IMG/VR virus record: IMGVR_UViG_3300021090_000021
Coordinates: 1 to 61,596 of that record
Length of the DNA: 61,596 bases
Strand: one strand, 5' to 3'
DNA from: a virus
Lineage: Duplodnaviria; Caudoviricetes
Made by a program: the position numbers and the translations under genes. The notes under the pieces were generated by a model that was not told the origin of the DNA, made no database searches, and saw only the letters and a program-made list of their open reading frames with translations. Shown one piece after another: positions 8,264-61,248 of the stretch. Position 1 is the stretch's first letter, and every line of letters begins with the position of its first letter.

Positions 8264-8266
8264 GGA

Positions 8267-8470: not shown

Positions 8471-8609
8471 GCTGTTCCGCCGTGGTAGGCCGGAACCGCC
8501 TCCGGAGGCATCTTCTGTGGGAGACTTCCGCAGCCGTCATGGAGGCTTACCCCTTCATGGTGGTCAGGGCCGGTCGGTCGTTGCAAGCTTCCGACTGGCC
8601 CGCTTGTGT

Positions 8610-8864: not shown

Positions 8865-8893
8865 GGTCTCGTCTCCGTTGTTGGTTATGGATG

Positions 8894-11261: not shown

Positions 11262-11434
11262 GCCCCTGTTTCACGCACCGGAAAGAATAGCTGCCGGGAC
11301 GCTTGCGCCACTTCTCCTTGCTCGACTCAGCAACCGCCACGGCGGAACATGCGCGCGCGGTCGCGAATGGTTCGCGCGGCGCCAGATCCGGATGGCTCAA
11401 GGCCAAGCAGAACGCGGCGGACATGCACTTGATC

Positions 11435-13501: not shown

Positions 13502-13509
13502 GATCTTGC

Positions 13510-14088: not shown

Positions 14089-14089
14089 T

Positions 14090-32558: not shown

Positions 32559-32581
32559 TCCTCTACCTTCCCACCTGCGAA

Positions 32582-32621
32582 AAAAGGGCCTCGGCGCAGT
32601 GTTTAAGTCCGAGGCCCTTTT
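32582..32621 (-). terminator. Rho-independent terminator in the late leader
   Basis: 13-bp inverted repeat aaaagggcctcgg/ccgaggccctttt with T-tracts. Confidence 0.7.
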
Positions 32622-32702
32622 GAGTTTAGGGAGGAAACGCCCAAGGAGGGCGGCGGTAACGCGAGGCGCTACCGCACACCCTATGAGCCCCAGAAAAGCA
32701 AT

Positions 32703-32733
32703 GAGCCCCGGTGCAGTGGTTGCACCGGGGCTC
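32703..32733 (-). terminator. Perfect 13-bp hairpin in the late leader
   Basis: gagccccggtgca-gtggt-tgcaccggggctc. Confidence 0.55.
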
Positions 32734-32835
32734 GCTCTGCCTGATATGCCATGGAGAAGCCCGAGATCATCGCATGATGGAACTCCGCGTTTGATCAGAG
32801 ACGGCCGACGATCAGCCCCGCCACCCTTTGATCTG

Positions 32836-32868
32836 AAAAGCAAAACCCCGGCCGCGAGAGCGCCGGGG
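32836..32868 (-). terminator. Terminator after the NusG-like gene
   Basis: ccccggc/gccgggg stem followed by TTTTGCTTTT on the - strand. Confidence 0.6.
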
Positions 32869-32899
32869 ATTACCATTGCACAGCACTTAGCGTGGTACC

Positions 32900-33607
32900 C
32901 TATCGGGTCGCTGGCAGCTGCTGTGCAGTCTGGATGACGCGGATGACACGGCCAACTGACTCTATGAATTGAATCGTTCTGTCCGATTCGTCAAGCCTGC
33001 CGATCATCCGGGTCTGGCCCGTCCACTTGCTTCTCGGGTCGGGATGATCCGCCAATGTGGCCACGGCCAACCGGTAAGCCCCCGTATTGCTTACGTTGTA
33101 GGTGTTGAACCGACCATAACCTTCGGCCAAGCGGAGCAGCTCGATCTCGTAGTCTGGCAGTGTTGCAACGTAATCGCCGAAATGGCAGATGCCACCCACG
33201 CCGTTGAGCTCGTAGAGATTGTCGAGGTCGTAGCCACCAAACAGTCGACGGATGAACAGATAGCTTCGCAGAACAGGCCTGGCCTCTTCACGCACCTCGT
33301 ATCGGCGCTTGTGTCGCGTCTTCGATGGTAATGTCCGCATCGGTGGCGTGGTGACGTGCTTGCCGACCGGGTAATAGCACTCGAAGCCCTCGCGCTCCAA
33401 CGAGGCCTTGGCGACGTGCTCGACGCGTGGCTGGCTGAAAGCGATGAGCCACGGATCCCAGTTGAGCTCGACGGTCTCTTGCCGCGTCTGCAATTCAGCA
33501 AAAGCATCGTATAGCGACTGCGGCGGCCGCTTGTCCTCGCCCCACTCCTTCCGGGCGAGCTTTAGCACATGCTTTTTCATCTTCGCGGTGATCCGCCTGG
33601 CTTGCAT
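32900..33607 (-). CDS. NusG/RfaH-like (NGN domain) late antiterminator
   Basis: W.IA..QP..E..A...L...G.E.Y.P and P.L.SYLF; occupies the Q-gene position. Confidence 0.8.
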   Translation of the reverse strand: MQARRITAKMKKHVLKLARKEWGEDKRPPQSLYDAFAELQTRQETVELNWDPWLIAFSQPRVEHVAKASLEREGFECYYPVGKHVTTPPMRTLPSKTRHKRRYEVREEARPVLRSYLFIRRLFGGYDLDNLYELNGVGGICHFGDYVATLPDYEIELLRLAEGYGRFNTYNVSNTGAYRLAVATLADHPDPRSKWTGQTRMIGRLDESDRTIQFIESVGRVIRVIQTAQQLPATR

Positions 33608-35792: not shown

Positions 35793-36103
35793 CAGGCGAC
35801 CTCCCTCTCCTCAAGCGCCTGCGCACGGACGGTGACGGCGAGCGGGCCGCATAGCTCGCCCGCACAGTCGAGCCACTCGGCGATCTGCTGAAGGGCTATT
35901 GCGCGTGCAATGCCGATACACGTCGCCGGCCGCAGCCGCATCGGCCCGCCATCTGTTGGGAGGTGACATTGGACGAAGAAGGCGACCTTCGTGCCGAAGT
36001 TATGGGGATTGATATGCGCCACGCGTAGGGTGCCGAGCATCACGTGCTCGCGCCCCGACGGAAGGCGATTGAAGGTGACGGGAGGAGACGTGATGGTGTT
36101 CAT
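35792..36103 (-). CDS. Hypothetical protein
   Basis: Overlapping start/stop on both sides. Confidence 0.5.
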   Translation of the reverse strand: MNTITSPPVTFNRLPSGREHVMLGTLRVAHINPHNFGTKVAFFVQCHLPTDGGPMRLRPATCIGIARAIALQQIAEWLDCAGELCGPLAVTVRAQALEEREVA

Positions 36104-38625
36104 GCCGCCTCTCCTTCGGCCGGCAGAAAATCGAACAAGGTCGGCACCGACGCCTGACGCTCGGCGTCCGCACAATAGTGCGCAGAATCGCGCCAATACT
36201 GTTCCGAAAGCTCGCTCGATTTCCCGCGGCGACCCTTCAGGATCGCCCGCACCGGAACGGTGCCGATGCCGCCGAACGGATCGTAGACCAGCTCGTCTCT
36301 ATTGGAGAACCGCTCGATGCAGCGATCGACGATGTCGAACTGCAGCGGGCAGATATGGAATTCAACGTTGCGGCGAAGCTGCTCGCCGTTGAGCGTGCGC
36401 ATCCGATTGATATTGTCCCACACCATCGGGTCGAATGACCCCGGCGCGAGCGCCATGAACGATGACGGCAACGCGTTGCGGACCTCGAGCGCCTCGCCGA
36501 TCGTGACGTGTCGGTCATAGTCGTACGGTTGGAACCGGCTCTGTTCGCGGAACAGCTTCGCGAGCTTGTCCGGTGGCAGCGCTGCAAGCTCCTCGGGCGT
36601 CAGCAGACGCTGTCCGCTCGAGCGCCAGAATGCATGCGCATCAATCTGCCAGCGCGCAAGCGAATAGTCCGACTTTTCGCGTCGCACCGGGAGGTCGGCG
36701 TAGCTCTTCGAGCGATCCGACTGAGGCTTGTGGAAAAGCAGCACGTATTCGGGTGATCCGACGCCGACCTTGGTGCCGTCCTTGCACATCTCGGTATATC
36801 CGAGCCTGTAGTTGCCGTTGTTCTCCCGCACGACATCGGTAACCACGGTGATGGCTCCGCAATAGTCGAAGCCGTGACGGCGGTAGTGGAAGATCGCCTC
36901 GGCATGGAACGGCGAGATCGTCGGCAGGCCTGCGCCAGTCATATTTCCGAACAGCACGCGGTCCTTGACGTGGATGCAGGCCAACCGACCGGGCCGCAGG
37001 ATCCGCAGCAGCTCGGGCGTGAGGAAATCCATCTGCGCCCAGAAATGGTCATTGTTGTCGGTGTGGCCGAAGTCTTCATAGTTCGTCGTATATTCGTAGT
37101 GATTGGCGAACGGCACTGAGGTGATGATCAGGTCGACCGACGCCTCGCCCGATCGCTTCGCCTCGTCGACAGCGTCATTGTTAACGACGCTGTAACGCTC
37201 GCCGCGAGCCTCCTTGCGTGGCACACCGATCTTTCGCTTGAGCGTGCCTGCAAGGTCGACGTGCCCCAGGCCGTACTTGCGGATGATCTCGCTCATACGC
37301 TTCGACTGCTCGTCGTGCGCTGCCCATTTGCGCTCGAGGTCGGCGCGGATCTCACGCTCGGCTTCGGTATAGATGAAGCGCGCCGTGCAGGCCTGCGTCT
37401 GCCCGAAGCGGAGGGTGCGATGCAGCGCCTGGATAATGTCGTGGAACTTGTAGTCGATGCCGACGAAGATCATCTCGTGGCAATGGCGCTGCCAATTCGG
37501 ACCGGCACCGCAGATTTCCGGCTTGGTCGACATCTCGCGGAACTTGCCGTCGGCGAAGTCAATGATGCGCCGCTCCCGCTCGTCGAGATCGAGCGTTCCG
37601 AACACAGCGAGTGAATTTGGGCGCGCCTGCTGGATCGCATGTCGCTCATCCTCGAGGTGGTGCCACAGGATCCGGTGCGTTGCTGGCTCGGCCTCGATCA
37701 ACTCCACCATCCGGGCTACTCGCGCCCCTATGGAGGCCCGTTTCTCTTCAGCCGCATCCTTGAGCCCGCGCGCCGAATCCTTGATCAGCACGCCCTGCCC
37801 ATCCCGCTCAGGCGCCGCCGTGGCGTGATCGCTCGGCACCTCGTGCCAGGTCACCTCCAACGGAGGCATCACGTAGCCATCGTCCGGATAGCCGAGATCC
37901 GACGGCCGCTGGATCATCACCGCCCACGACGACACCCACAGCCAGAATTCCTCTTCCTTGTGCGGGTATAGCGTGAGCTCGTTCGCCTGCGTAGAATCGC
38001 GCTGGAAGAAGCGCGTGAGGGCCTGGCCGGTGTCCATCACCTCGAGGAAACCGGCGTAGTGAATAAGCTCCTTGATGCGGTTGGGGTCCGGTGTCGCGGT
38101 CGCCGGCATCTTGAAGCGGATACCGGAAAACAGCGGCAGAAATTCCTGATAAGTCTTAGAGCCGTAGGAGCGCAGCACCGCCGCTTCGTCGAGCGTCACA
38201 CCGCCGAAAATTTTTGGATCGAGCTTTCCGTCTCGGATAGTTTCGTAGTTTGTCAGGTGATGGACGGCCGGATCGTCCTCGATCTCTCGTTCGGCGCGCA
38301 CGAACTTGAGCCGCACGCCCAGCCGGTCGAAGCCACGGTCGACCACCTCGCGGGTGAACTCCTGACGTACGCCTAGCGGCAGCACCGTACAGAACGGCAG
38401 ACGCGTGTGCCGACGGACCTGGCGGCCGTATTCGAGTTGCATTGCGGTCTTGTGCAGTCCGAACGACGCGAACACCGCGCGCCGGCCGCCCCGCAGCGCC
38501 CAGGCGACGATGTCGCGGCAGAAGGGCTTGAGATCCGGGCTCAGCTCTGCAGGATCGACTTCAAAGCCGGTCGCAGGCGCGAGCCTGATCTTATCCTCAA
38601 GGAAGGCCTTGTAACGATCGCTCAC
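36100..38625 (-). CDS. SNF2-like helicase fused to N4/N6 DNA methyltransferase
   Basis: FGLHKT, LDEA, TATP.PN, QA.HR..RFGQ; MTase ITSVPF, HICPLQ, DPFGGIG. Confidence 0.9.
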   Translation of the reverse strand: MSDRYKAFLEDKIRLAPATGFEVDPAELSPDLKPFCRDIVAWALRGGRRAVFASFGLHKTAMQLEYGRQVRRHTRLPFCTVLPLGVRQEFTREVVDRGFDRLGVRLKFVRAEREIEDDPAVHHLTNYETIRDGKLDPKIFGGVTLDEAAVLRSYGSKTYQEFLPLFSGIRFKMPATATPDPNRIKELIHYAGFLEVMDTGQALTRFFQRDSTQANELTLYPHKEEEFWLWVSSWAVMIQRPSDLGYPDDGYVMPPLEVTWHEVPSDHATAAPERDGQGVLIKDSARGLKDAAEEKRASIGARVARMVELIEAEPATHRILWHHLEDERHAIQQARPNSLAVFGTLDLDERERRIIDFADGKFREMSTKPEICGAGPNWQRHCHEMIFVGIDYKFHDIIQALHRTLRFGQTQACTARFIYTEAEREIRADLERKWAAHDEQSKRMSEIIRKYGLGHVDLAGTLKRKIGVPRKEARGERYSVVNNDAVDEAKRSGEASVDLIITSVPFANHYEYTTNYEDFGHTDNNDHFWAQMDFLTPELLRILRPGRLACIHVKDRVLFGNMTGAGLPTISPFHAEAIFHYRRHGFDYCGAITVVTDVVRENNGNYRLGYTEMCKDGTKVGVGSPEYVLLFHKPQSDRSKSYADLPVRREKSDYSLARWQIDAHAFWRSSGQRLLTPEELAALPPDKLAKLFREQSRFQPYDYDRHVTIGEALEVRNALPSSFMALAPGSFDPMVWDNINRMRTLNGEQLRRNVEFHICPLQFDIVDRCIERFSNRDELVYDPFGGIGTVPVRAILKGRRGKSSELSEQYWRDSAHYCADAERQASVPTLFDFLPAEGEAA

Positions 38626-42640: not shown

Positions 42641-42921
42641 CAGATCAATCCCCGGTCATCGGCGAGCCAGCTCGGCATCGTGATCTCGACCAGTGGCCAT
42701 TTCGGTTTGCCGACCAGGCCGATGGTCTTTCCGGTCTCCCGGATGGTGATCTGTGAGAGCGGCAGTAACACCGCCACGCGCTCATCGCCGGTCTCGGAGA
42801 CCTTGAGGGTGCGGCCGATCTCACCGTGGCTCGCCAGGTCGAGGGTTACGGTGTCCTTGTTCGCGGTCTCGCGCGTATCGTCGAACACAAGATCGCCAAA
42901 GAGGTCGTCGTCCTGAGTCAT
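42640..42921 (-). CDS. Phage hypothetical protein
   Basis: LP.SQI...ITMP.WLA..RGL. Confidence 0.65.
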   Translation of the reverse strand: MTQDDDLFGDLVFDDTRETANKDTVTLDLASHGEIGRTLKVSETGDERVAVLLPLSQITIRETGKTIGLVGKPKWPLVEITMPSWLADDRGLI

Positions 42922-43871
42922 GAGGGCGCTCCCGCGAAGGGGATGACATTGGCTCCAATCGACACATCAGCCGCACCGGCCGCCGGCAACTCAGCAGCCA
43001 TCGGCAGCGGCCACGGCATCGATTTGATTGCATGGTCCTTGATGCCGAGCGTCCACAGCCGCGGCCGGCCGCAATCCGGGTGCGGCTCGATCGCCGCCAG
43101 CAGGCGCTCGATCACCGCATCGCGGCGCATGTCCCATCCGCACTTCGGGCCGACGACGGTCTGGCGCTTCAGGCTCTCGCAGAAGCTGCGCATCAACGCC
43201 GGCGTCGCGGTCTCGAAGGCCTCGGCAAGATTCTTTAGATTTCCCGACGGCAACCCGAATGGATTGAGATAGCGGGCGAGAATATGCTCGCGCTCGAACT
43301 GCCCGGGCAGCTTCACGTCGATCTGAATCTCGAAGCGGCGCCACACGCTCTCGTCGATCGCGTCGGCGCGGTTGGTGGCGGCGATGATGAAGGAATCATA
43401 GGCATCGAGCCGCGCCAGCAGCGCGTTCACCATGGCGTTGTGGTCGTGCTCCACGGTCGGGTTGATGCCGGTGTGCATGCGCTTCTGCGCCAGCGTGTCG
43501 AATTCATCGAAGAACAGCAGCAGTGGTTGACCGGCCTCCTTTGCAGCCGCTTCCGCCGCATCGAAGACCGCCTTGACGTTCGAGGTCCCGGTGCCGACGT
43601 AGCGGCCGTGGATGTCATCGGGACGGATGATCGCCATCGGCAGCCCGAGCCGGGCCGCGAGATGATGCGCGAGCGTGGTCTTGCCGGTGCCGGCCGCGCC
43701 GGAGAACAGCGCACGCCGGCGCTCCTTGAGCCCAACGGCAGCGAGCTCTTCCTTGGCCCAGACTTCCGTCAGCCATTCCAGCAGCGCGTTGCGCACCGGC
43801 TTCGCCAGGATCGGCTCCTGCGCTTCCTCGGGCGTCACGATCTGGCTGAACTCTTTGAATCTTTCCGACAC
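42918..43871 (-). CDS. AAA+ ATPase
   Basis: GAAGTGKT, LLFFDEFD, AATNR...ID..VWRRF. Confidence 0.92.
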   Translation of the reverse strand: MSERFKEFSQIVTPEEAQEPILAKPVRNALLEWLTEVWAKEELAAVGLKERRRALFSGAAGTGKTTLAHHLAARLGLPMAIIRPDDIHGRYVGTGTSNVKAVFDAAEAAAKEAGQPLLLFFDEFDTLAQKRMHTGINPTVEHDHNAMVNALLARLDAYDSFIIAATNRADAIDESVWRRFEIQIDVKLPGQFEREHILARYLNPFGLPSGNLKNLAEAFETATPALMRSFCESLKRQTVVGPKCGWDMRRDAVIERLLAAIEPHPDCGRPRLWTLGIKDHAIKSMPWPLPMAAELPAAGAADVSIGANVIPFAGAPS

Positions 43872-43874
43872 GCG

Positions 43875-44540
43875 CTATTCCTCCGGGCCCATGCCGTCGC
43901 CGCCGCTCTCGATGCGCCAGCCCTTGTCCCAATGCGCGCGGCGGGAATCGCCGAACGGGAACGGGTTGTTGATGATGGGGACATCAGCCTTGAACGCGGC
44001 ACGGCCCAACTTGATGGCGCCGTCGGAATCGACATCGGGAACGTCGACTTTCGGCGGCGCGGCGGGACGCTTGGCCGCACCGGCCTTGCCGGGCTCGACC
44101 GGCGTCTCGATGACCTCGGTCACGGAAATGTTGCCGTCCTTGTCGCGGGTCAGGCGAACCGGCGCACCGCCGGCCTCGACCGTGATCGATCCGTTTGCCG
44201 GCACGAAGGACTTCATCGCCTCGATCACGGACTCGCGTGCGGTGATGTCGACCTTCATCAGGCCGACGGCGCGGAACAGCGGGTTATCCGCCGCCATGCC
44301 CATGGCGTGCAGATACATGTCCTCCAGCGCCTCGGCTTCTGCGCGATCCGACGGCTTCATCTTCCGTTTCTTGACGATGTAGCGGATGTCGGCGGGGATC
44401 AGGTTCGCGGCCTTGGCTTCGGCCATGACGACACCCTTGTCCTGCTGGAGCTGCTTGATCTGTGCGTCGAGGTTCTCGACACGCTCGACGAAGCCACGCA
44501 GTAGCTCGCCGCCGATGGTGTTCTGGCCGATGCTCATCAT
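43875..44540 (-). CDS. GapR/DUF2312-like nucleoid protein with C-terminal extension (RMF-like motif)
   Basis: LRGFVERVE.L......D...V.AEAK...R.IVK.RK..R.E.EA...Y..A.GM; C-terminal NPFP...W.KGW. Confidence 0.8.
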   Translation of the reverse strand: MMSIGQNTIGGELLRGFVERVENLDAQIKQLQQDKGVVMAEAKAANLIPADIRYIVKKRKMKPSDRAEAEALEDMYLHAMGMAADNPLFRAVGLMKVDITARESVIEAMKSFVPANGSITVEAGGAPVRLTRDKDGNISVTEVIETPVEPGKAGAAKRPAAPPKVDVPDVDSDGAIKLGRAAFKADVPIINNPFPFGDSRRAHWDKGWRIESGGDGMGPEE

Positions 44541-45553
44541 GATGCCTCCGATGTAGGATGCGTAGCGGCTGCAAAGCCGAGACTGCGGATCAGATTGGCG
44601 CTGTCGGCGAACCGCGCGTGGCCCAGCCAGGCCGTCAGGAACTGCTGCAGCCGATCGTCGTCGCCGTTGGCGCGGTAGGACGCGATCTTGCGCCGGGCGC
44701 GGACCACACTGTCGCGGCGCAGCAACTTATGACTTGGCCAGATGCGATAGCCGAGGAAGTTCACGCCGCGCGAGATCGGTGCAATCTGCCACTTGGAAAA
44801 GCGAAGGCCGAGCTCGGCGCGAGAGAACACCTCAACGCTCGCCTTGACGCGACGCAGGTGCTCGCTGCTCGCGCCGAGCACGACCAGATCGTCCATGTAG
44901 CGGTACCAAAACCGCTCACCCAGGCCCTGCTGCAGGTGCCGGTCGAGCGTGGCGCCGGTATAGTAGTTGGCGAAGATCTGCGAGGTGAGGCTGCCGATCG
45001 GCAGGCCGATGCCCGCACGCGGCACCATGGTGGTGAGCAGGCGCAGCGTCGCGCGGCAGCTGATCTTGGCTTCGATAAGCCGCCATAGGGTCGCCAGTTC
45101 GATTGAGGCGAAATAGCCGGAGAAGTCGGTCTTGAGGAAATAGAGCGGTTCGGACGGATCGCGCGATAGCCGCCGCAGGTCGCTCTGCAAGAGCCGCACA
45201 CCGGCATGCGTGCCCTTGCCCGGGCGGCAGGCGAAGGCCCGCGGCAGCAAGGCACGATCGAAGATCGGCGCAATGACCAGGCACAAGGCCTGCTGCGCGA
45301 CGCGGTCGCGGAACGGCAGGGCCGAGATCAGCCGGCGCTTGGGATCGAAGATCAGGAATTCGTTGGGCGTCCCCGGCCGGTAGGTGCCGTCCGCCATCTC
45401 CTCGGCGAGTGCTGCGAGGTTGAGCGCGTCATATTCCTTGAACGCGAGGTAGCTCGGCGTCAGGCGCTTGCCGCAGCAGGTCAGCCGGTACGCCGCCTGC
45501 ATCGTGCAAAAGTCGGTGATGCGTGCAATCAGGTTGCGATAACGCTTTGCCAT
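44537..45553 (-). CDS. brt: DGR reverse transcriptase
   Basis: PK.R.I.A.PFRDRV.Q, ACR.GKGTH, LK.DF..YF.SI, GLPIGSLTSQ (DGR-type SQ motif), RYMDD, FLGY. Confidence 0.96.
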   Translation of the reverse strand: MAKRYRNLIARITDFCTMQAAYRLTCCGKRLTPSYLAFKEYDALNLAALAEEMADGTYRPGTPNEFLIFDPKRRLISALPFRDRVAQQALCLVIAPIFDRALLPRAFACRPGKGTHAGVRLLQSDLRRLSRDPSEPLYFLKTDFSGYFASIELATLWRLIEAKISCRATLRLLTTMVPRAGIGLPIGSLTSQIFANYYTGATLDRHLQQGLGERFWYRYMDDLVVLGASSEHLRRVKASVEVFSRAELGLRFSKWQIAPISRGVNFLGYRIWPSHKLLRRDSVVRARRKIASYRANGDDDRLQQFLTAWLGHARFADSANLIRSLGFAAATHPTSEAS

Positions 45554-45740
45554 GGGTGACCTAGGGAAAGCCGGCCGCGGGTCTCGACGGGTTTCCCCGC
45601 TACGCCCCGCTCTGCCGGACCGTGAAATGTGTTCGCCGAAGCAGGACAGGCGGGCTGACCACCGATCGCGATCACAAAGCATGTGAACGCGAGTGGCCGG
45701 CCGGCGGGACCGTGATCGCCGCCGAGCCGCAAACCGGTCG

Positions 45741-45868
45741 TCACCGCGGCCGCGCGCACCGATGTTGTCGTCGGAATTGTCGGGCCAGTTGTACGCGACG
45801 TTCGCGTAGCGCGAGCCAGCGTTGTCGCCGTTGTACCAGCTGCCGCCGAACATCGAGGCGCGGGGCAT
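45741..45868 (-). repeat. DGR template repeat (TR)
   Basis: 128 bp matching 46333-46460 except at 10 positions, all TR adenines; 24 adenines, six Asn codons. Confidence 0.97.
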
Positions 45869-45870
45869 CA

Positions 45871-46281
45871 TCATCGTTTCCCCGCCTGCCCCATCGGACG
45901 CGCGAGCGCGTCCGAACTCTGTTGCCCGAGCTTCCTTTGCCAGGCGCCCAGCATCCGCCCCGGCTCCGACAGCAACGCCAGCGCGGTGCCGTGCTGATGC
46001 GGGGTGAGGATCCTGATGCCGTCCCTGACGAGGAAACGCAGATGTGACCGCAGGGTCGCGAATTCGGCGTCGACGGCATGAAGCCTCGACACCTGCCGCG
46101 ACCGAGCGGCGTGATAGAGACCTCCGATCGGCACGAACAGTGCCGCGAGCACGATGTCACGGATGACTCCGTGCCGCCGCGGCGCATTCTGCAGGATCGG
46201 ATAGAGATAGGTCACGAAGGCCTCATATTTTTCAACGATCGCCAGACCGTCAGTTGCAAGGTTGTCATCCCTGGCGATCAT
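45871..46281 (-). CDS. avd: DGR accessory variability determinant
   Basis: L.IVEKYE....YLYP..QN.PR.H...RD...L...DA..A.LR..LRF...E.G.MLG.W; lies between target and TR. Confidence 0.93.
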   Translation of the reverse strand: MIARDDNLATDGLAIVEKYEAFVTYLYPILQNAPRRHGVIRDIVLAALFVPIGGLYHAARSRQVSRLHAVDAEFATLRSHLRFLVRDGIRILTPHQHGTALALLSEPGRMLGAWQRKLGQQSSDALARPMGQAGKR

Positions 46282-46293
46282 CGTTGGACCGGG

Positions 46294-46315
46294 AGCCGTC
46301 GCTGTCGCGACGGCT
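46294..46315 (-). promoter_or_regulatory. DGR target-recognition hairpin/cruciform downstream of VR-IMH
   Basis: Perfect 9-bp stem agccgtcgc/gcgacggct, loop GACA on the coding strand, overlapping the target stop codon. Confidence 0.88.
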
Positions 46316-47237
46316 AAGCAAGTTGCAGGTGATCACCGCGGCCGCGCGCACCGATGTGGCCGCCGGAATTGTCGGGCCAGTTGCACGCGACGTACGCGCA
46401 GCGCGAGCCAGCGTAGCCGCCGGAGTACCAGCTGCCGCCGAACATCGAGGCGCGGGGCATGTAGGGATCTCCGTCGTGACCCCAAGCCCAGAGATTGCCG
46501 GTCGCCTGCATGAGACCGAACTTGCTCGTGCGCGGCGCGTCGAGGCCCGTGACCTTGGGGTCGTCGCGGCACGACGACTTTTCCGTGACGCCATAAGCTG
46601 CCGCGAAAAACTCCTCGGGTCCGAGCAATCCCTTGCGGTGATGCTTCATCACCGCCACGGCGGTGTCGTAGTCGAGCTTCTTGAACGTCCCGCCGGCCGG
46701 CTTGAGCGGCGGGTCATCGCCGTCCGCGATCAGCACACCGAATTTGCTGGTGCCGTCGCCAACATGATTGACGCCGAGCAGATAGATGTCGGCCCAGAAC
46801 GTGCGCCCGGGCACGTCGACCAGCGCCATGCCGCGGGGATCGGGACATGCCGGCCGGAAGTTGATGTCCCAGAGCGAGCAGGGATTGATCGCGGGCACGG
46901 TGTCACCGCCGCTGCGCGCGGTCGCATTGCCGCCCGGTGCGAAATGAAAACCGCCGAGCAGGATGTCGCCGTGCGGAATGATCGTGGTCCGCGCGATCGA
47001 GACCTCGCCGTCCCTGACGTGCACCTCGTAGTCCGCGCCGGCGATGTAGCCGGGCTCGCCTTTCTCGTTGAGATGCAGCGAGACCGGCGTGTCATCGGTA
47101 AAACGATGCCCGGCGAAGATCGTGCCGGCCTTGATGACGATCGCGGACGATCCGGTCACCTTGAAGACCGGCGATCCCGGGTCGGGCTTGACCAGCCGCT
47201 GGGCGGTGTCGGCCGCAACAGACGCGCGCTTGTTCAT
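46314..47237 (-). CDS. mtd: DGR target: Mtd-like C-type-lectin-fold protein lacking the N-terminal anchor domain
   Basis: Blocks recalled from BPP-1 Mtd: IKAGT, GGFH.APG.NA, SLWDI.FRP...DPRGM.LV, FWADIYLLGVNH..DGTSK, TSK.G..QA.G.LW.WG, FGG.W, GSR, GARG..DHL. Confidence 0.92.
   Translation of the reverse strand: MNKRASVAADTAQRLVKPDPGSPVFKVTGSSAIVIKAGTIFAGHRFTDDTPVSLHLNEKGEPGYIAGADYEVHVRDGEVSIARTTIIPHGDILLGGFHFAPGGNATARSGGDTVPAINPCSLWDINFRPACPDPRGMALVDVPGRTFWADIYLLGVNHVGDGTSKFGVLIADGDDPPLKPAGGTFKKLDYDTAVAVMKHHRKGLLGPEEFFAAAYGVTEKSSCRDDPKVTGLDAPRTSKFGLMQATGNLWAWGHDGDPYMPRASMFGGSWYSGGYAGSRCAYVACNWPDNSGGHIGARGRGDHLQLA
46333..46460 (-). repeat. DGR variable repeat (VR)
   Basis: 3' end of the target gene; GC-rich element GGTGCGCGCGGCCGCGG followed by divergence from TR (IMH vs IMH*). 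Confidence 0.97.
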
Positions 47238-47240
47238 GTG

Positions 47241-48437
47241 TCATGGCTCCATGCAAAAGGCCGGCGACCCGCCGGCAGGGTTCGATGAATTCGGTGATGC
47301 AATCTCCGCTCGGAGCGGAAAGCCGTTGTGCTCGACGCCGTCGAGCAGGCGTCCGGCGGCTTTCTTGCCGACGTGGATCAATGTGGAACCGTCGCTGTGG
47401 TGCTCGAGCCTGTCACATCCCGTGTTGGCCAACAGCTGAGCGTCGGAATAATTGAGAGGCCTGTGTGGTGCCCATGGTTTGCCGTCGATCAGTATCCGCG
47501 ATGGTCCGCGCTGAATGATGCTCAGCCATTCATCGGCGTCGATCCATTCGCCGTTCTGCTTGTGGAAATAGGCAACACCGGCCGCTTTGCATTGGTCACG
47601 CAACGACGCAAACCATGCACGCGGAGCACCGCGCGCCTTGCTGCCGCTCTCGCCGCCGGTGATGAGCCAGTCGAGCTTGCCCTGCGATGCGTCGACGTAC
47701 CGCAAAGCATCGAACCCATCGGAGATGTCGTCGGACTCTGGATAGCGAACATGCCCCGCGCCCCACGGAATATCGGTCAGGTCGATCGGCGCCAGCAACG
47801 GTTCGCAGGAGACACAGCGCAGCGCAGCCTTCGTGTTGAGCAAGATTGGAATAAATTCGTCAGCCTCCGCCTGATTGGATACGGAGGTGCCTTCGATGAC
47901 GTTGCGCAATGGCAGGCGTGGCAGCACATGCTTTCCGCCGAGGCTTTCCGGCCCGCGAACCACTTTCTCGGCGGCCAGCTCGATCGCGTTGTGGCGGCGC
48001 GGACCGTCAAGGTATTGCCGCCGCCGCTCGGGGCGCTTGCTTAGATTGATGTATGTGTGCTGCGGGGTGAGAGCCATCACAGCGTAAAGCTGGTCGATAA
48101 ACTCCGTCGGCCACCACTCGCCGAAAGCGTCGCTCATTGATTCCACGAAGATCTTGGTGGGCTTCTTCCGCCTGAGCGGGGCGAGAAGCTTCTCTTTGTC
48201 GACCGTGAAGCGATAGCGGAATCGGTTGCCGGGCTTGAACTCCAGGCCGCCGAGGCGGAAGTTGCCCTTCCCGGCGTAGCAGAACCGGCAGGCCTCATTC
48301 ACGTGCTCGCAATGGTGCGCGGAGACCGTGATGGTCTTTCCCTTGCGTTCGATCTCGCGCTCGGCGCGCAGCGCATTCCAGGACTGGCCCTTGGATCCGT
48401 CGGCGCCGAGCAACCATTCGATGGAGGTCTCAGCCAT
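47241..48437 (-). CDS. DUF5131 / phage Gp37-Gp68 family (radical-SAM-like) protein
   Basis: TSIEW, CEHVNEACRFCYA, FV.SMSD.F, TP.H.Y..L.KRP, S.EPLL, W.I.GGESG, GKK.AGR.LDG. Confidence 0.92.
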   Translation of the reverse strand: MAETSIEWLLGADGSKGQSWNALRAEREIERKGKTITVSAHHCEHVNEACRFCYAGKGNFRLGGLEFKPGNRFRYRFTVDKEKLLAPLRRKKPTKIFVESMSDAFGEWWPTEFIDQLYAVMALTPQHTYINLSKRPERRRQYLDGPRRHNAIELAAEKVVRGPESLGGKHVLPRLPLRNVIEGTSVSNQAEADEFIPILLNTKAALRCVSCEPLLAPIDLTDIPWGAGHVRYPESDDISDGFDALRYVDASQGKLDWLITGGESGSKARGAPRAWFASLRDQCKAAGVAYFHKQNGEWIDADEWLSIIQRGPSRILIDGKPWAPHRPLNYSDAQLLANTGCDRLEHHSDGSTLIHVGKKAAGRLLDGVEHNGFPLRAEIASPNSSNPAGGSPAFCMEP

Positions 48438-48636
48438 CGCGGCCTCCGAGATCTTCCGCGAGCTTAGCGATGGCGAACCTCAGCAACGCGCGGATGCCCA
48501 ACTCGCCATCGACGATGTGCTTCGCCAGGTCGCGGTCGTTGCCTTCCGGCGATCCGATCGTGTCAAGCGCGCGGTGCACCGCGGCGGCGCCGGTGAGAAC
48601 GGCCGTAAGATCGTGGCTTGGTGCTCGATCGGCCAT
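48430..48636 (-). CDS. Hypothetical protein
   Basis: Coupled small ORF. Confidence 0.45.
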   Translation of the reverse strand: MADRAPSHDLTAVLTGAAAVHRALDTIGSPEGNDRDLAKHIVDGELGIRALLRFAIAKLAEDLGGRDG

Positions 48637-48860
48637 CAGTCCGGTGCCTTCTGGTTCGGCCAGTCGCGCATGTCCTCGACGACGCTGAAGGCCTCATTGA
48701 CCTTGTCAATGTGACAGCCGGCGGCCTTGGCGCGGATCGCCCATTGCTCAACGAGGTCGGCCGCAAGTGCGTCTTGTGCGCGCAGCACGAAGAACGGCTC
48801 GTCGGGGGCAAGCTTGGCGAGACAATCGAAATGGCCGGGGTGGTTCTTCGTCGACATCAA
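48636..48860 (-). CDS. Small phage protein (DEP.FVLRAQD motif)
   Basis: DCL.K..PDEPFFVLRAQD..A..LV..WA. Confidence 0.7.
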   Translation of the reverse strand: MMSTKNHPGHFDCLAKLAPDEPFFVLRAQDALAADLVEQWAIRAKAAGCHIDKVNEAFSVVEDMRDWPNQKAPD

Positions 48861-51037
48861 ACGATCTCCCCGTGCGCCGCCATCAGCGCGATCGCAATCG
48901 GCTGCACCCAGATCGGCTCCGACGACAGAGTGAAGGTCTCGCCCGACCAGGCGCCAAGCAGCGTACGGCCCATGACGCCGGCAATCGCCGCCGCGGCCGG
49001 CGGCGGCACCGCGTTGCCAATGCGCTCACGCCAAGCGGAATCGGAGAGGCCATCGAGCTCGAGCGTCTCGTCGGGATCGACTAGCCCTTGCAGGGCCGCG
49101 AGCTCAAGCGTGGTGAACGGCCGGTGCCAAGTGTCGTCGAGCGCGCGAATGACGCAGACGAGCCGGTCGCTCGGCCCGGGCAGCACATCATCGATGCGCG
49201 GGTCGGCGACCGAGTTTCGGCCGTTGTCATGCTGACCGGCGCCGGTGACACCGCCACACGGCTCGCACCATGGCACCACGCCGTAGTTACCCGCGGTCAG
49301 GTATTTGCTGCGGCCGTTGCGGGTGAACTCGGGACGCGGGTCCGCGACCGCCCCCGCACCGCTGCCGACCTGCTGCGCGCCGGTCACGCAGCCAGCAGCC
49401 TCGTCCCAGGCGTTGACGCGCATCTTCGTGCTCGACGCACCTGGATGCCAGTTGGCATAGCGGGGATCGGCAACCGCGAAAGCACCGTTGCCGGTGGAGC
49501 TCGCGCCGATCACGGCGCCGGCCGCCTCCTCGTAACCGGTGACGCGGTACTTCGTCTGCTTGTAGTCGCCCCGCGGCGATTGCCGCGGATCGGCGACGCA
49601 CAGCGCACCGCCGGCAGGGTGATGAGCCGCGGTCACCGTTCCGCCGTTCTTATCCCACCGCGTCACCTTCAAGACGTGATGATGGGTATTCGGACCGAAA
49701 CCGGTGCGCGGATCCGACACCGCAAGGCCGCCACCTGGCCCACCGGATCCTGCAACCGCCGGCGCGTGATCGCCCCAGCGCACGATGCGATACACATTAT
49801 TGAAGCGTGGATTGCCCTGGATCCTCGGATCGGCCACCGCATTCGGCCCGCCACCGGCGAACATCTTGCCGGTGACCACGCCGGCGGGCTGATCCCACGG
49901 CCGCACACCCAACTGCACCGACTTCGGATGGCCGTCGATGCGCGGATCGGCGACACTGTGAAAGCCGTTATTCGGGTAGCTGCGGCCGGGCACCGTACCG
50001 GTCGGCTTGTGCCACTGGCGAACCCCGAGCACGTGCGCGTTGTAGATCTCATGCACGCGCGGATCGGCGACAGCATGGGCACCACCCCCTGGTGCGCTCC
50101 GGCCAGTGACGGTCGCCGCCGCCTCTTCCCAACGGCGCACGCCGAGCACGCTCGCCGCCCACGGGATTTCAGGAGTAATCGCGAAGTCGCGCAGTACACC
50201 GTCATCAACGGCAAGCTTATTGAGGGAACGCCAGTCCGAGCCCGCCTCAACGAAGGCAAGCCGCACCCAGGTCTTCCAGTGCAGCGCCGGCATGCGGTGC
50301 ATCGGGCCGCCCAGTCCGGAGAGCGGCAACGGCAGCTTGTCCAGGACCTCGCCAACGCCGCGCAGCGGACGTTTGACCGGCTCATAGAGGAAGTTCGGAA
50401 TCTTGGCGGCGTGGCGGGCGACCAGAAGGAAGCGCTTGCGGCTCTGCGCGAGGCCGCCGATCTCGCCGCAGTCGTGCGTCGTCTCTGCGACCGCATAGCC
50501 GTAAGCGCGCAGCAGCGCCACAATCCGGTCGAGTAGGAAACGGCCACGCGTCGCGATGCGCGGCACGTTCTCGAATACGATCAGCTCTACCGGATCGTCC
50601 TTATACGCCTCGAGCGCGAGCCACACGCCCCGCAAGGTGAGCCCGTTGAGCGCCTGATATTTGGCGCTCGTCGACATCTTCTCGGACAGGAGCCCTGAGA
50701 AGCCCTTGCACGGCGCCGACAGGAAGAGGATGTGCGGATGCTCATTCTGTAGCGCGTGGCGGATGTCGTCGGGCACCGCCTCACGCCAGCCGTCCGGCGG
50801 CGCGACCCCGAAGAAGTCGCGATATTGCTCGGGCGAGAACAGGTCGAGCCTGGTCGCCTTCACGCCGGCGAGTCGCCCGAAGTCGGCGCAGCCGGCAGCG
50901 TCGTGGTCGATGCCGCCCAGGCAGCGAAAGCGCGCCTGCAGATTGCCAACACGCGCCTCGCCGCGGTTGAAGCCCTTGGCGCCGCCGCCAAGGCCGCAGA
51001 ACAGATGGCCCACGTTGATATTGACGGTGCGCATCAT
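48857..51037 (-). CDS. C5 cytosine DNA methyltransferase with eight internal V(A/S)DPR repeats
   Basis: FCGLGG, SAPCKGFS, FENVP, QSRKR, RP.T..ELAALQ, IGNAVPP. Confidence 0.93.
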   Translation of the reverse strand: MMRTVNINVGHLFCGLGGGAKGFNRGEARVGNLQARFRCLGGIDHDAAGCADFGRLAGVKATRLDLFSPEQYRDFFGVAPPDGWREAVPDDIRHALQNEHPHILFLSAPCKGFSGLLSEKMSTSAKYQALNGLTLRGVWLALEAYKDDPVELIVFENVPRIATRGRFLLDRIVALLRAYGYAVAETTHDCGEIGGLAQSRKRFLLVARHAAKIPNFLYEPVKRPLRGVGEVLDKLPLPLSGLGGPMHRMPALHWKTWVRLAFVEAGSDWRSLNKLAVDDGVLRDFAITPEIPWAASVLGVRRWEEAAATVTGRSAPGGGAHAVADPRVHEIYNAHVLGVRQWHKPTGTVPGRSYPNNGFHSVADPRIDGHPKSVQLGVRPWDQPAGVVTGKMFAGGGPNAVADPRIQGNPRFNNVYRIVRWGDHAPAVAGSGGPGGGLAVSDPRTGFGPNTHHHVLKVTRWDKNGGTVTAAHHPAGGALCVADPRQSPRGDYKQTKYRVTGYEEAAGAVIGASSTGNGAFAVADPRYANWHPGASSTKMRVNAWDEAAGCVTGAQQVGSGAGAVADPRPEFTRNGRSKYLTAGNYGVVPWCEPCGGVTGAGQHDNGRNSVADPRIDDVLPGPSDRLVCVIRALDDTWHRPFTTLELAALQGLVDPDETLELDGLSDSAWRERIGNAVPPPAAAAIAGVMGRTLLGAWSGETFTLSSEPIWVQPIAIALMAAHGEIV

Positions 51038-51699
51038 ACTGAAGCTCCCCCGTGCTCGCTGCGCGTCTTGTCGTGGGCGAGCGTGCGCAACGCCGGCAGC
51101 AGCGCTCGCCAGCGATTGAGGAGTGCGGTTTTCGCCGTCTCCCAGCGCCACGGCACGATCACGTCGCGCAACGGCTCGATGCCGGCATAGGGCACTGGGT
51201 TCGGATGCGGCCGATTGCCCATCAGGTCGCGCCACTCCGTGGTGAACATGATGAGGTCCCAGCGCTTGACCGCAGTGACGAGCTGCTGCGGCATCGGCCA
51301 TTGGAGGCCGGCGGCGGCGTGGATGACGACGTCGTGCCGATCCTCGAGCTTCTTCATCGACGCCAGGACCTGCTCGGCGAGGATGCCGAACTCCTGCTGG
51401 CATATTTCAGCGATCGCGTGCTTCTTCGGCGTGGTGTCGTCCTTGAGGACCGCCTCGGGACCATCGTGAACGGAGAAGTATCCGGCGAGCACCGGATCCT
51501 TGGTGGCCTGCATGATCGCGTCGATGCCGCGCGAAAGATGCTCGCCGACCGAATATTCGACGCCGGGCGTGGCACCGTTGAAGCGCTTCTCCTTGGTGAG
51601 CTGCTCGGCATAGGAGTCGAAGTCAACGTCGGACGCTTTCGGATGGAGCAGGTCGATACCGCGGCCGTTGGCCAGTGTGAGGATGGTGGCTGCGCTCAT
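51034..51699 (-). CDS. HD-domain phosphohydrolase (YfbR/5'-deoxynucleotidase-like)
   Basis: RFNG.T...YSV.EH, HD..EA...D..TP.K, VK..D.....E.RDLM. Confidence 0.85.
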   Translation of the reverse strand: MSAATILTLANGRGIDLLHPKASDVDFDSYAEQLTKEKRFNGATPGVEYSVGEHLSRGIDAIMQATKDPVLAGYFSVHDGPEAVLKDDTTPKKHAIAEICQQEFGILAEQVLASMKKLEDRHDVVIHAAAGLQWPMPQQLVTAVKRWDLIMFTTEWRDLMGNRPHPNPVPYAGIEPLRDVIVPWRWETAKTALLNRWRALLPALRTLAHDKTRSEHGGASV

Positions 51700-52457
51700 G
51701 TGGCGGACCCTCCAATGAGCGGAAGCTCTGACGTTTCCGGCGCTGGCTCATAGATCGAGCGCGCAGTGAGAACCTTCGGCTGAAACACCACAGCACCCGC
51801 ATGCTCGTCGACCACCAGCACGCCCTTGTTGCAGGCGAGCCAGAGCATGGAGTCGACCGTTGCGATGCTGTCACCGCTGCGCTCGGCGAGATGACGGCAT
51901 AAGGCCATGCAGGCCGGAAACCGCAGCTCGATCCGGCGGCGCGGCTTGTCAGGGAAACCGGTCAGCCGACAGAGCCAGATGTCGGGCTTGCAGACGTCGG
52001 CGCCGAAATTCTTGGCGAGCTGGAACTTGGTGTCGTCGCCGACATACGAGAGGTTGCCGCACCATTCGACCAGCTTCTCGGCGTCGGCGAGCGCGAGCAC
52101 GGCCTGCAACTCGGCGAAGAGATCGACGCGGCCATACCATGCCCGCTCGATGGCGACGGCCTTGGCGTGATATCCGAAGGCTTCCACCACCGGCCGGGCG
52201 GCATGGATCGCATCCCACACCTTGTGCTCGATCGTGCGAGCAGCCTGGGCAGAGCGACCGGCGCAGAGGATAATCCAGACGATCTCACCGGCCATGTCTT
52301 CGGCGGTGGCCGGCGGGTTGAGTTCCTTCGTCGACCATCGCAACATCTCCGGCGCATCGACATCGTGCGCGAGCAGCCACGTGCTGACCTCGCCATAGAG
52401 GCCCGGCGGGACCCGGGCCGCCGGCGCGGGCACAATGAAGTTGGAGCGAACGCTCAT
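51696..52457 (-). CDS. Helix-hairpin-helix / DNA glycosylase-fold-like protein
   Basis: W.IL.AG, L.YVG..T...LAKNFG.DV.KPD.WL.RL, VD..LW. Confidence 0.6.
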   Translation of the reverse strand: MSVRSNFIVPAPAARVPPGLYGEVSTWLLAHDVDAPEMLRWSTKELNPPATAEDMAGEIVWIILCAGRSAQAARTIEHKVWDAIHAARPVVEAFGYHAKAVAIERAWYGRVDLFAELQAVLALADAEKLVEWCGNLSYVGDDTKFQLAKNFGADVCKPDIWLCRLTGFPDKPRRRIELRFPACMALCRHLAERSGDSIATVDSMLWLACNKGVLVVDEHAGAVVFQPKVLTARSIYEPAPETSELPLIGGSAT

Positions 52458-58580: not shown

Positions 58581-59008
58581 ACGACCCAGTAATTCCAGAA
58601 CGCGTCCGCCTGGCGTTCGAGGGACATAGCTGCCTGCCCCCGGCCGAGCTCGCCCCCTTGCTCAAGGTCGATGTCAAGACCTTGCGCGGGCTCTGCACGG
58701 ATGGCCTGATGCCCTGGCACGTCAAGGGCCGCGGCCGCAAGCGGCAGCATCGCGTGTTCACGCTGGCCGACGTCGCCGAATATTATCGGCGCACGAGCTG
58801 CGAGGGAGTGGGCGCATGTCCGTCTACAAGCACCGGAACTCACCGTTCTGGCAGTTCGATTTCGTCCGCAGTGGTTATCGATTTTCCGGATCGACCGGCA
58901 TCAAGAAGACAAAGCCCAGGCGCGAAGCCGAAGCGGTCGAAAAGGAAGAGTGTCGGGCGGCCGAGCGTCTTGTTGAAGAGATTCGGCGTTCCGGACGGAG
59001 GCCGATGA
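58577..59008 (+). CDS. xis: Excisionase-like HTH protein
   Basis: ELA.LL.V..KTLR....G......G...R.F...DV; overlaps the integrase start. Confidence 0.7.
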   Translation: MNDPVIPERVRLAFEGHSCLPPAELAPLLKVDVKTLRGLCTDGLMPWHVKGRGRKRQHRVFTLADVAEYYRRTSCEGVGACPSTSTGTHRSGSSISSAVVIDFPDRPASRRQSPGAKPKRSKRKSVGRPSVLLKRFGVPDGGR

Positions 59009-59988
59009 CGGTCGCGAACGCGTTCGATCGCTGGTGGACCGAAATCGGGGAGCACCTCTCTGAGACGGATCTGAGAACCAGACTCGACTGGCTGCGCGAC
59101 GAGCTCGGGGCCAAGACGCTGCTGCACGACGTCACCGCCGACGATGTAACCAAGGCCATGACCGCCAGGCGCCTGCATGTGGTGCCGGCCGGCCGCGATG
59201 ACGACGGCAAGCAACTGTATCGCCCGATCGGCGCCCGCACAGTCAATCGCACCGTGCCGATGCTGCTGCGCCGTGTGACGCGCCGCGCCGTCGACCTTTG
59301 GAACGTCGTGATCCTGCGCGAGCCCAAATGGGGCAAGCTTGTCCTGAAGGAGATCAGGCGGCCGATCGAAGAGCTGTCGCTCGCCACCGAGGACGCGCTC
59401 GACGCCCAAGAGCGCGCCGACTACCAGCCCTGCCGGCGGTTCGCGACCATCATGGGGTTGCGCCTCAAGGAAGCGCTGCTGATCTGGCCGCAGGTCGACT
59501 TCGACGCCGCCGAGATCAGGATCGTCGGCAAGGGTGACAAGCCTGCGGTGCTACCGCTGACGCGCGAAGCCTACGAGATCCTGTGGGCCGAGCGCGAGCG
59601 AGATCCGCTGCACGTCTTCACCTTCGAGGCGATGCAGACACAACGCCGGCCGAACGGCGTGCGCTACATCAAAGGCCAGCGCTACCCGATCACCTATTGG
59701 GGGCTCACCTCACATCGGCGCCGCAACTGGAAGAAGGCGGGCGCCCATGGGCGTTTTCACGATCTGCGGCACACGACCGGCCGGCGACATCTGCGCGCCA
59801 CCGGCAACCTCAAGAGCGTCCAGCAGCTGCTACGCCACAGCGACATCTCGACCACCGCCCGCTTCTATGCCGACGTTCTCCTCGAAGACGTCCGCGCCGG
59901 CATGGAAAAGACCGCGGCCGACATTTCGTCCCGTAAGGAGTCCCGGAGGGCAAGGGAAGCACCGGCCAAGGCCTTGAAGAGGCGATAG
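58816..59988 (+). CDS. int: Tyrosine integrase
   Basis: GLR..E, GKG, FHDLRHT, LLRHSDI.TT..Y. Confidence 0.96.
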   Translation: MSVYKHRNSPFWQFDFVRSGYRFSGSTGIKKTKPRREAEAVEKEECRAAERLVEEIRRSGRRPMTVANAFDRWWTEIGEHLSETDLRTRLDWLRDELGAKTLLHDVTADDVTKAMTARRLHVVPAGRDDDGKQLYRPIGARTVNRTVPMLLRRVTRRAVDLWNVVILREPKWGKLVLKEIRRPIEELSLATEDALDAQERADYQPCRRFATIMGLRLKEALLIWPQVDFDAAEIRIVGKGDKPAVLPLTREAYEILWAERERDPLHVFTFEAMQTQRRPNGVRYIKGQRYPITYWGLTSHRRRNWKKAGAHGRFHDLRHTTGRRHLRATGNLKSVQQLLRHSDISTTARFYADVLLEDVRAGMEKTAADISSRKESRRAREAPAKALKRR

Positions 59989-60617: not shown

Positions 60618-60896
60618 ATGATCAGGAGCTGGAAAAGCGCACCACTACGGGAGTTGTTCGAAACCGGAACGGCGCGCCGCATCGATACCAAGCTGCAAAG
60701 ACGCTGCCTCGCACGGCTCACATCGCTAAACCAAGCGACGGACCTGCGGCAGCTTCACCTTCCTGGTTACGAGCTGCACAAGTGGGAAGGCAAATGGGCG
60801 AACAAGTGGTCGATCTCGGTGTCCGGACACTGGCGGATCACCTTCGATTGGATTAATGGGGAGGCCCACGATGTCGATCTTGAGCAACCACACTGA
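60618..60896 (+). CDS. higB: HigB (RelE-family) toxin
   Basis: MIRSW....L.ELF..G, PGY.LH...G....WSI.VSG.WRITF. Confidence 0.93.
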   Translation: MIRSWKSAPLRELFETGTARRIDTKLQRRCLARLTSLNQATDLRQLHLPGYELHKWEGKWANKWSISVSGHWRITFDWINGEAHDVDLEQPH

Positions 60897-60939
60897 CCCG
60901 GCGGAGAGGCTCCGGCCGCCGCCGGCCGGAGACCTCCCG

Positions 60940-61248
60940 ATGGCGACCTATCCCGCCCGCCCGCGTAAGGTAGCGCCGCTGCATCCCGGCGCGGTCGCCG
61001 CCGACGTCCTCGAGGAGCGGCAGGTCTCGCTGCGCCAGGCCGCCAAGGCCATCGGCCTGTCGCCGACCGGCTTGAGCAAGGTGCTCACCGGCAAGAGCCC
61101 GGTGACGCCGGAGACGGCGCTGCGCTTCGGCGTGTACTTCGGTAATGGGCCGGAGATCTGGCAGCGGCTGCAGAACGACTATGATCTGTGGCACGCGGGC
61201 GCGGCCATGAAAGCCGAGCTCAGAAAGATCAAGCCGCTGCAGAAGTGA
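60940..61248 (+). CDS. higA: HigA antitoxin
   Basis: HPG, HTH, VTPE.ALR....FG...E.W..LQ..YDL. Confidence 0.93.
   Translation: MATYPARPRKVAPLHPGAVAADVLEERQVSLRQAAKAIGLSPTGLSKVLTGKSPVTPETALRFGVYFGNGPEIWQRLQNDYDLWHAGAAMKAELRKIKPLQK

Follow-up and report, generated by a model that had tools for sequence, protein, structure and literature searches.

The DGR described in this study is of a known kind but new in architecture and position: its target protein lacks the N-terminal anchor of its BPP-1 homologue, and the element lies away from the tail genes. It is carried by a 61.6 kb viral record, about 94% complete, whose whole length (61,596 nucleotides) is called the window here and whose source is a temperate phage of alphaproteobacteria. 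The target, encoded by an open reading frame on the minus strand (46314-47237), is a free-standing Mtd-type protein consisting of a beta-sandwich and a lectin domain, without the N-terminal beta-prism. As to its function, the single most likely reading, though hardly a secure one, is that of a receptor-binding protein which joins the virion in trans.

The cassette is a complete BPP-1-type DGR, read from the minus strand and comprising the target with its variable repeat (VR), a hairpin, Avd, the template repeat (TR) and the reverse transcriptase (RT). It shares with the DGR of BPP-1 the order of target with VR, Avd, TR and RT, the adenine-specific mismatches and the hairpin placed after VR. 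By repeat comparison, VR was delimited to 46328..46460 (core 46333-46460), at the 3′ end of the target gene and ending 17 nt before its stop codon, and TR to 45736..45868 (core 45741-45868). Directly after the TAG stop of the target begins a GC-rich sequence that reads as a putative hairpin with a 7-bp stem and a 4-nt loop (46296..46313); BPP-1-type DGRs have a cis-acting hairpin at the same position, that of BPP-1 being named by Wu 2018 (PMC5758913). Avd (45871..46281, 136 aa) was recognized by the Pfam family bAvd (E 1.1e-23; 84 bits against a cut-off of 40) and has 44% identity to its BPP-1 counterpart, and TR begins directly after the Avd stop codon. RT (44537..45553; Pfam RVT_1, E 4.9e-17) is 54% identical to BPP-1 Brt over 322 residues; its likely start is the ATG at 45553, and the open frame extends upstream across TR.

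The repeats are 133 nt long, and within their 128-nt core TR and VR differ at 10 positions, all 10 of them adenines in TR. With 24 A among the 128 nt of the TR core, the chance that all 10 differences fall on A is 5e-8. These differences change nine residues of the target, and the window DGR looks active. No third copy of the repeat end was found in the window. In contigs of the DNA run of the probable source metagenome, which also include pieces of related phages, unitigs break at TR and VR, leaving VR variants unseparated. A scan of positions 43000-52000 for promoters and terminators gave counts equal to the level obtained with shuffled sequence.

Mtd has three domains and is placed on the tail fibre, and our positive control and the account of Miller 2008 (PMC2408619) agree with this layout; the three-domain description and the fibre location were reportedly given in work of 2005 and 2010. 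In the control, Pfam assigned Mtd_N to residues 5-41 of BPP-1 Mtd (E 1.3e-16) and mtd_2nd to residues 66-169. In the 307-aa window target, which was identified by phmmer, Pfam and an AlphaFold2 model and is a real open reading frame, mtd_2nd alone was found (residues 25-124; 25.9 bits against a cut-off of 24.6), and Mtd_N gave no match either in the target or in the six frames of the window at E <= 1. Since the control shows Mtd_N at 5-41 and the target mtd_2nd only, about 42 N-terminal residues, corresponding to the beta-prism, are missing from the target. Nor can its frame be lengthened at the 5′ side, being closed two codons ahead of the ATG by the TGA of the neighbouring gene. The phmmer search of PDB chains returned Mtd variants as its sole matches, with E values from 1.9e-51 (1yu3) to 1.4e-46; the five Mtd variants cover the range from 1.9e-51 to 9.5e-47. 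Residues 15-306 of the target were aligned to Mtd 57-380, with 41% identity across both retained domains. The blocks by which the first-pass annotation had recognized an Mtd homologue, namely FWADIYLLGVNH..DGTSK, SLWDI.FRP and GARG..DHL, are present in this alignment, and the absence of the N-terminal beta-prism, which it had also claimed, is confirmed.

The structural model leads to the same assignment. Built from 126 aligned sequences, it reached a pLDDT of 92.7 (an earlier model from a 32-row alignment had 56.7), with the mtd_2nd region confident and the first 10 residues at a mean pLDDT of 51. A Foldseek search with the model retrieved Mtd structures (1yu3; TM 0.83, E 9e-31) and, next to them, formylglycine-generating enzymes. 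The target is made up of residues 1-14, which are unconserved in alignments and of low model confidence, a beta-sandwich (mtd_2nd) at about 15-125, and a C-type-lectin/FGE-like domain at about 126-307. The beta-sandwich, the lectin domain and the C-terminal VR are common to BPP-1 Mtd (1yu0-1yu4, 2iou), in which the Mtd_N beta-prism (residues 5-41) stands before them, whereas the window target is without it. The N-terminus of the target sequence shows no hydrophobic stretch; the absence of a signal peptide does not discriminate between possible locations, because virion proteins are without signal peptides too.

This short form is not peculiar to one phage; it marks a large clade, of proteins about 300 aa in length, in temperate phages and prophages of alphaproteobacteria. 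A search of clusters at 90% identity yielded 1173 proteins at E <= 1e-5; among the best 120 of these, 105 are 280-320 aa long, and the names attached to the best 120 include Bradyrhizobium, Afipia, Rhodopseudomonas, Rhizomicrobium, Pseudolabrys and Xanthobacteraceae. A scan of IMG/VR gave 78 distinct loci with relatives of the cassette, and related cassettes are present in the cultured Bradyrhizobium sp. YR681, Mesorhizobium sp. B2-3-4 and SP-1A, and Shinella pollutisoli KCTC 52677. Loci in bacterial genomes have the same phage gene neighbours as those in phage records, a collection of 72,556 plasmids contained no match, and the family was observed in phage contexts only. Three longer proteins of the close clade (P0121, P0031 and P0047) were considered as fusions and rejected: their upstream open reading frames run on in frame, and the conserved start methionine is internal.

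Clade cassettes often include two or three diversified copies of the target, with three tandem copies in one Hyphomicrobium MAG locus. Activity was scored by allowing mismatches at TR adenines only and requiring a VR of at least 90 nt with no more than two non-adenine mismatches. A qualifying VR was found in 30 of 32 single-copy loci, and in 26 of the 28 loci having at least two full copies both copies had a VR qualifying against a single TR; near-duplicates are included in these counts (L005/L006, L033/L034, L042/L043, L050/L051 and L057-L059), so that the number of independent cases is lower.

Among more distant relatives, a different architecture predominates. A search without length limit of representatives of 50%-identity clusters gave 521 proteins at E <= 0.001, and in 108 of the best 150 of these the N-terminal part was aligned. 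Of that subset, 28 are short, seven are extended by 26-80 aa, which is the range of BPP-1 Mtd, and 73 are extended by more than 80 and up to 700 aa. The short architecture is thus a minority form in a family that is mostly fused to fibres. Both the mtd_2nd and the lectin domain of the window target recur in the long Mtd-type tail-fibre proteins (400-1025 aa), many of which adjoin Avd and RT; these proteins differ from it in their N-terminal extensions of 80-700 aa, which bear Phage_tail_fib (at one locus), weak BppL_N matches or alanine-rich shaft repeats. Where their context could be seen, they lie near structural genes, as at L074, between the portal and tape-measure genes.

Two short proteins outside the clade, from loci L080 and L072, bear on the interpretation. 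They have about 330-340 aa and, as in the window, are without Mtd_N, with mtd_2nd starting from about residue 25. They are only about 40% identical, and are encoded inside structural modules, not in an early or lysogeny arm. At L080 the gene order is major head protein, tail protein, two virion proteins of 687 and 495 aa, two Mtd genes, Avd and RT, and at L072 the short Mtd gene lies between an adaptor-like gene and the tail sheath gene. Because L080 and L072 lie in structural modules, loss of the beta-prism alone is no proof that the protein has left the virion, and the missing anchor, which had been taken as a sign of possible repurposing, is a weak one.

The genomic position of the window cassette differs from that of mtd in BPP-1. 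There, mtd stands behind the tail-fibre gene bbp9 where the structural operon ends, whereas in the window it lies between DUF5131 (Gp37/Gp68; 47241..48437, minus strand, Pfam), which is upstream of and outside the DGR, and a GapR-like nucleoid protein (43875..44540, minus strand, Pfam), whose junction with RT, read from the sequence, indicates translational coupling. The window cassette appears to be a part of a tightly packed non-structural operon, because the mtd start abuts the DUF5131 stop and the RT stop overlaps the GapR start (ATGA). Nearly all window genes are on the minus strand, the integrase (58816-59988) being on the plus strand. Read on the minus strand from high to low coordinates, PHROG and Pfam scans gave the following order: a C5 methyltransferase; DUF5131; Mtd, Avd, TR and RT; GapR; an AAA ATPase; small ORFs; a ParB-like methyltransferase; a helicase with methyltransferase matches; a replication initiator; a NusG-like protein; a phrog_1924 protein; TerS, TerL, portal, protease and capsid; a tail terminator, two tail-tube paralogues and a tape-measure protein; and finally a LamG protein, a 780-aa fibre, a hub-like protein and a 1416-aa protein. 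The cassette is thus upstream of TerL, at a distance of 13.6 kb. The presence of tape-measure and tail-tube genes also sets the window phage apart from BPP-1, which is podovirus-like. A MazG-like protein is encoded near the cassette, the AAA ATPase resembles IetA (E 3.5e-45), and DUF5131 matches the PADLOC candidates PDC-M30B and PDC-M41B. The neighbours are as the first-pass annotation had described them, namely genes of DNA modification, nucleotide metabolism and the nucleoid.

Such placement is found throughout the clade. In the 78 IMG/VR loci and loci of alphaproteobacterial genomes, the flanking genes, which were recognized by similarity to those of the window, are DUF5131, the ParB-methyltransferase, helicase, GapR, the AAA ATPase and a phrog_3193-like gene, in varying order, and in at least eight loci terminase genes are located 3-8 kb downstream of the cassette. 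With a TerL_ATPase search, the terminase could be located in 15 of 30 related records, which with the window makes 16, and in all 16 of them the cassette is outside the tail module; in none does it follow the tail genes. The non-structural location noted in the first-pass annotation for one phage therefore holds clade-wide. In 10 of the 16 records (the window, G003, G005, G010, G012, G014, G015, G017, G018 and G027) the cassette lies on the terminase strand, 4-25 kb upstream; in four (G002, G004, G023 and G029) it is opposite to the terminase strand, and in two (G025 and G028) it is far downstream in linear coordinates. The cassette of G025 is preceded by a primase-like gene on the opposite strand, and G028 is an incomplete linear contig in which the cassette precedes replication-initiator and NusG-like genes, an arrangement also found upstream of the window terminase. 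In the proviruses G002 and G004, co-oriented genes run from a CI-like repressor through a few genes to two Mtd genes, Avd and RT, with an integrase at the provirus end, and in G001 the RT is followed on the same strand, after 4.4 kb, by an integrase gene. The clade cassette behaves as a portable unit of the non-structural genome arm.

Three window proteins (12191-13501, 13510-14088 and 14090-16432) had been proposed as adaptors at first. Eleven relatives rated 100% complete by CheckV were tiled for comparison with the window. Their cassettes are clearly related to that of the window (identities of 65-79% for RT, matched in 10 of the 11, 53-84% for Avd and 48-65% for Mtd); the window tail genes found no match in these relatives at E <= 1e-4 over at least 40% of length, save one LamG-domain hit. 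The proposed adaptors, present in 0 of the 11 complete relatives, are thus not co-inherited with the short Mtd, and the 780-aa fibre had no match in any of the 30 related records. When the ORFs of the 12 genomes were clustered all against all, the clusters represented in at least 10 genomes were those of cassette components and of antisense shadow ORFs only, the next one being the ParB-methyltransferase, in nine of the 12. A terminase and portal type is common to eight of the relatives, to the exclusion of the window, and no homologue of the BPP-1 structural proteins, Bbp9 included, was found in the window. When Mtd identity was compared with shared gene content across the 12 genomes, no pair had closely similar Mtd, and in that pairwise comparison the RT filter failed in most genomes and a split gene of G001 added zeros. 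By these gene comparisons, the cassette moves between phages with unrelated virion genes.

We favour the reading of the target as a virion receptor binder because of the survey prior, the strong homology to Mtd and the short forms found in structural modules. Surveys take viral DGR targets, those of Mtd type included, as tail or receptor-binding proteins (PMC5758913, PMC8144416); in the account of Wu et al., 12 of 372 targets are of Mtd type, 'similar in size' to Mtd, and taken as tail proteins (PMC5758913). The proposed mechanism would begin with copying of the TR RNA by RT together with Avd, during which adenines would be misread. The cDNA would take the place of VR in the 3′-terminal part of the gene and alter as many as about 14 codons for the ligand-binding face of the C-type-lectin domain. 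The target would be produced independently of the tail operon and would join the particle non-covalently, as an accessory hypervariable adhesin possibly attached to the virion through the apex of the beta-sandwich or through the short N-terminal tail, while basic adsorption would be provided by ordinary fibres, for example 14090-16432.

Several observations speak for this virion role. Both short forms examined outside the clade (L080 and L072) are in structural modules, 73 of the 108 aligned distant relatives are C-terminal ends of long fibre proteins, and the family occurs in phage contexts only, with none among the plasmids. A single Mtd trimer has been described as binding weakly, with micromolar affinity, and as being effective through twelve trimers on the particle (Miller 2008, PMC2408619); the need of Mtd for multivalent display is thus easier to reconcile with a particle than with a soluble protein. 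Against the virion role stand the location of the clade cassette, which is outside the tail module in all 16 records with a placed terminase, its position between a CI-like repressor and an integrase in G002 and G004, and its packing between DUF5131 and GapR in the window; moreover, no docking partner is apparent, and the first 14 residues are unconserved and modelled with low confidence.

The same observations on gene position could be explained by a different function, to which we ascribe a somewhat lower, though still considerable, probability. An anchorless Mtd trimer might stay in the cytoplasm as a non-virion protein, its varied face binding host defence proteins or proteins of competing phages. 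Such a binder would come from an early or lysogeny-side operon and serve counter-defence or prophage-encoded exclusion; the consistent non-structural placement and the repressor-integrase position in G002 and G004 are in agreement with this, as are the unrelated virion modules and the absence of a conserved partner gene in the genomes compared. The neighbours are also of the kind found in conflict systems (several methyltransferase proteins, the IetA-like ATPase and DUF5131 with its PADLOC candidates). On the other hand, the protein has no effector domain and no fixed partner gene alongside, and short forms elsewhere are in structural modules. To our knowledge, every characterized homologue binds an extracellular ligand, which also counts against a non-virion binder. 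So does the micromolar affinity of the single Mtd trimer, which is described as relying on avidity (PMC2408619). Roles of DGRs in immunity have been proposed (PMC10053308), which speaks for this reading. A soluble lectin acting inside the infected or lysogenic cell as an antibody-like repertoire against host defence or rival phages, encoded by a portable cassette, is a serious possibility, though less likely than the virion role. For the intracellular target suggested by the first-pass annotation, gene context is the one line of support, and if its other suggestion were right, that the protein joins the virion through an unknown adaptor, the DGR would be put to no new use.

Lectin-fold scaffolds with a C-terminal VR diversified by a DGR are also known from TvpA, LdtA and TaqVP, which gave no sequence match to the target in the PDB search at E <= 1. 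These proteins are cellular and without the Mtd beta-sandwich, whereas the window target is phage-encoded; TvpA and LdtA are described as displayed on the cell surface (PMC5758913, PMC8144416). For some cyanobacterial DGR targets, thought of as intracellular, a regulatory role was put forward (PMC7517822). The window target could also be a soluble extracellular lectin which is released at lysis and binds cell-surface structures, masking receptors or lessening the loss of progeny on debris. The lectin fold typical of surface binders, the lack of an anchor and of a partner, and the gene position outside the tail operon would all suit such a protein; yet no precedent for it was found in the literature consulted and the selective link between the protein and the genome encoding it would be weak, which makes this explanation improbable.

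Two further possibilities concern the gene itself, and neither merits more than slight credence. The missing N-terminus could be supplied by DUF5131 through readthrough of its in-frame TGA, giving a DUF5131-Mtd fusion, as the TGA and the mtd ATG share a frame and are two codons (six bases) apart. However, a shared frame arises by chance in a third of gene pairs, GGAG is present 9 nt before the mtd ATG, and the upstream gene in relatives is a different one (the ParB-methyltransferase, helicase, phrog_3193-like gene or AAA ATPase). Furthermore, a stop codon is directly before the ATG in 22 of 102 scorable copies, and the frame is closed within 30 codons from the start in 48 of the 86 clade copies that have at least 47% identity and are uncut by the end of their locus. 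That the cassette is an inactive remnant, whose target lost its function along with the anchor, is scarcely credible: a relative, G014, does have a partial Avd and no detectable RT, but the cassette ORFs of the window are intact with mismatches all on adenines, and the short form is kept in more than 100 proteins with the adenine-only signature recurring across loci.

In the literature consulted we found no anchorless Mtd and no phage DGR in an early or lysogeny arm; Supplementary Table S1 of PMC5758913 may include members of the clade. Phage DGRs are generally read as tropism-switching devices on tail proteins, yet in the clade described here, which includes hundreds of proteins, the target has no anchor and its gene lies outside the tail module. 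If the target is on the virion after all, as we consider most likely, docking without a beta-prism and without a conserved partner would be implied. If it is instead a non-virion binder, a phage DGR would be known for the first time to have a non-structural target. The 307-aa form itself is a natural minimal Mtd scaffold.

Immediately upstream of mtd, the target gene of the diversity-generating cassette, the minus strand encodes a DUF5131 protein (47241-48437) that was matched in PADLOC to the candidate defence components PDC-M30B and PDC-M41B (E ~1e-39). Its TGA and mtd lie in the same frame, two codons apart. At the 3' end of the DUF5131 gene, about 20 nt upstream of the mtd ATG, the same strand carries a hairpin with seven G-C pairs and CTTTTG after it (47238-47276), a feature to be read against a terminator scan that overall gave results at chance level. 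DUF5131 was found within 10 kb of the cassette, on either side of it, in at least 16 of the IMG/VR loci. A C-x6-C-x2-C motif is present close to the N-terminus of the protein.

The other flank of the cassette is occupied by GapR (43875-44540, minus strand) and an adjoining AAA ATPase (42918-43871, minus strand), the latter matching the defence protein IetA in PADLOC with an E value of 3.5e-45; no IetS-like protease was seen downstream of this ATPase. The same GapR and AAA pair was also observed beside the cassette in several related loci (L017, L040, L055, L125 and L129).

Two large proteins with methyltransferase matches are encoded on the minus strand as well. An 841-aa protein (36100-38625) is matched by the phrog_16 DNA helicase family over its full length (residues 23-838) and by methyltransferase families across residues 478-832, and it has counterparts of 48-66% identity in many relatives. 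The central part of an 848-aa C5 DNA methyltransferase (phrog_116; 48857-51403) contains about 10 degenerate tandem repeats, each ending in an AVADPR-like motif with a short variable segment after it. The enzyme may be a multispecific phage methylase, with these repeats as its several target-recognition modules.

Mtd-like sequences were also encountered in other arrangements. In a Hyphomicrobium MAG (L136, 8016-10900), a single Avd and a single RT follow three short Mtd copies in tandem. The Mtd-Avd-RT cassette of Parvibaculum indicum (L159, ~7488-14900) is more distantly related (37% identity) and is flanked by the terminase large subunit and portal genes, which is another unusual position. 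An Mtd-like C-terminal part, 43% identical over query residues 112-306, was found in tail-fibre gene 17 of LR745708.1 and LR745707.1, records named Escherichia phage T7 that are presumably engineered constructs.

A tyrosine integrase (58816-59988) and an HTH antitoxin-like gene (60856-61248), both on the plus strand at the right end of the window, indicate that the phage is temperate. Among the minus-strand tail genes, two adjacent 140-aa paralogues (20649-21071 and 21080-21502) each match major tail protein families. Just upstream of TerS, on the same strand, lie a NusG-like protein (32900-33607) and a phrog_1924 'minor tail protein' (31812-32876). Several relatives (L018, L020, L027 and L055) have this pair ahead of the terminase as well, and the two genes may constitute a late-operon antiterminator module.
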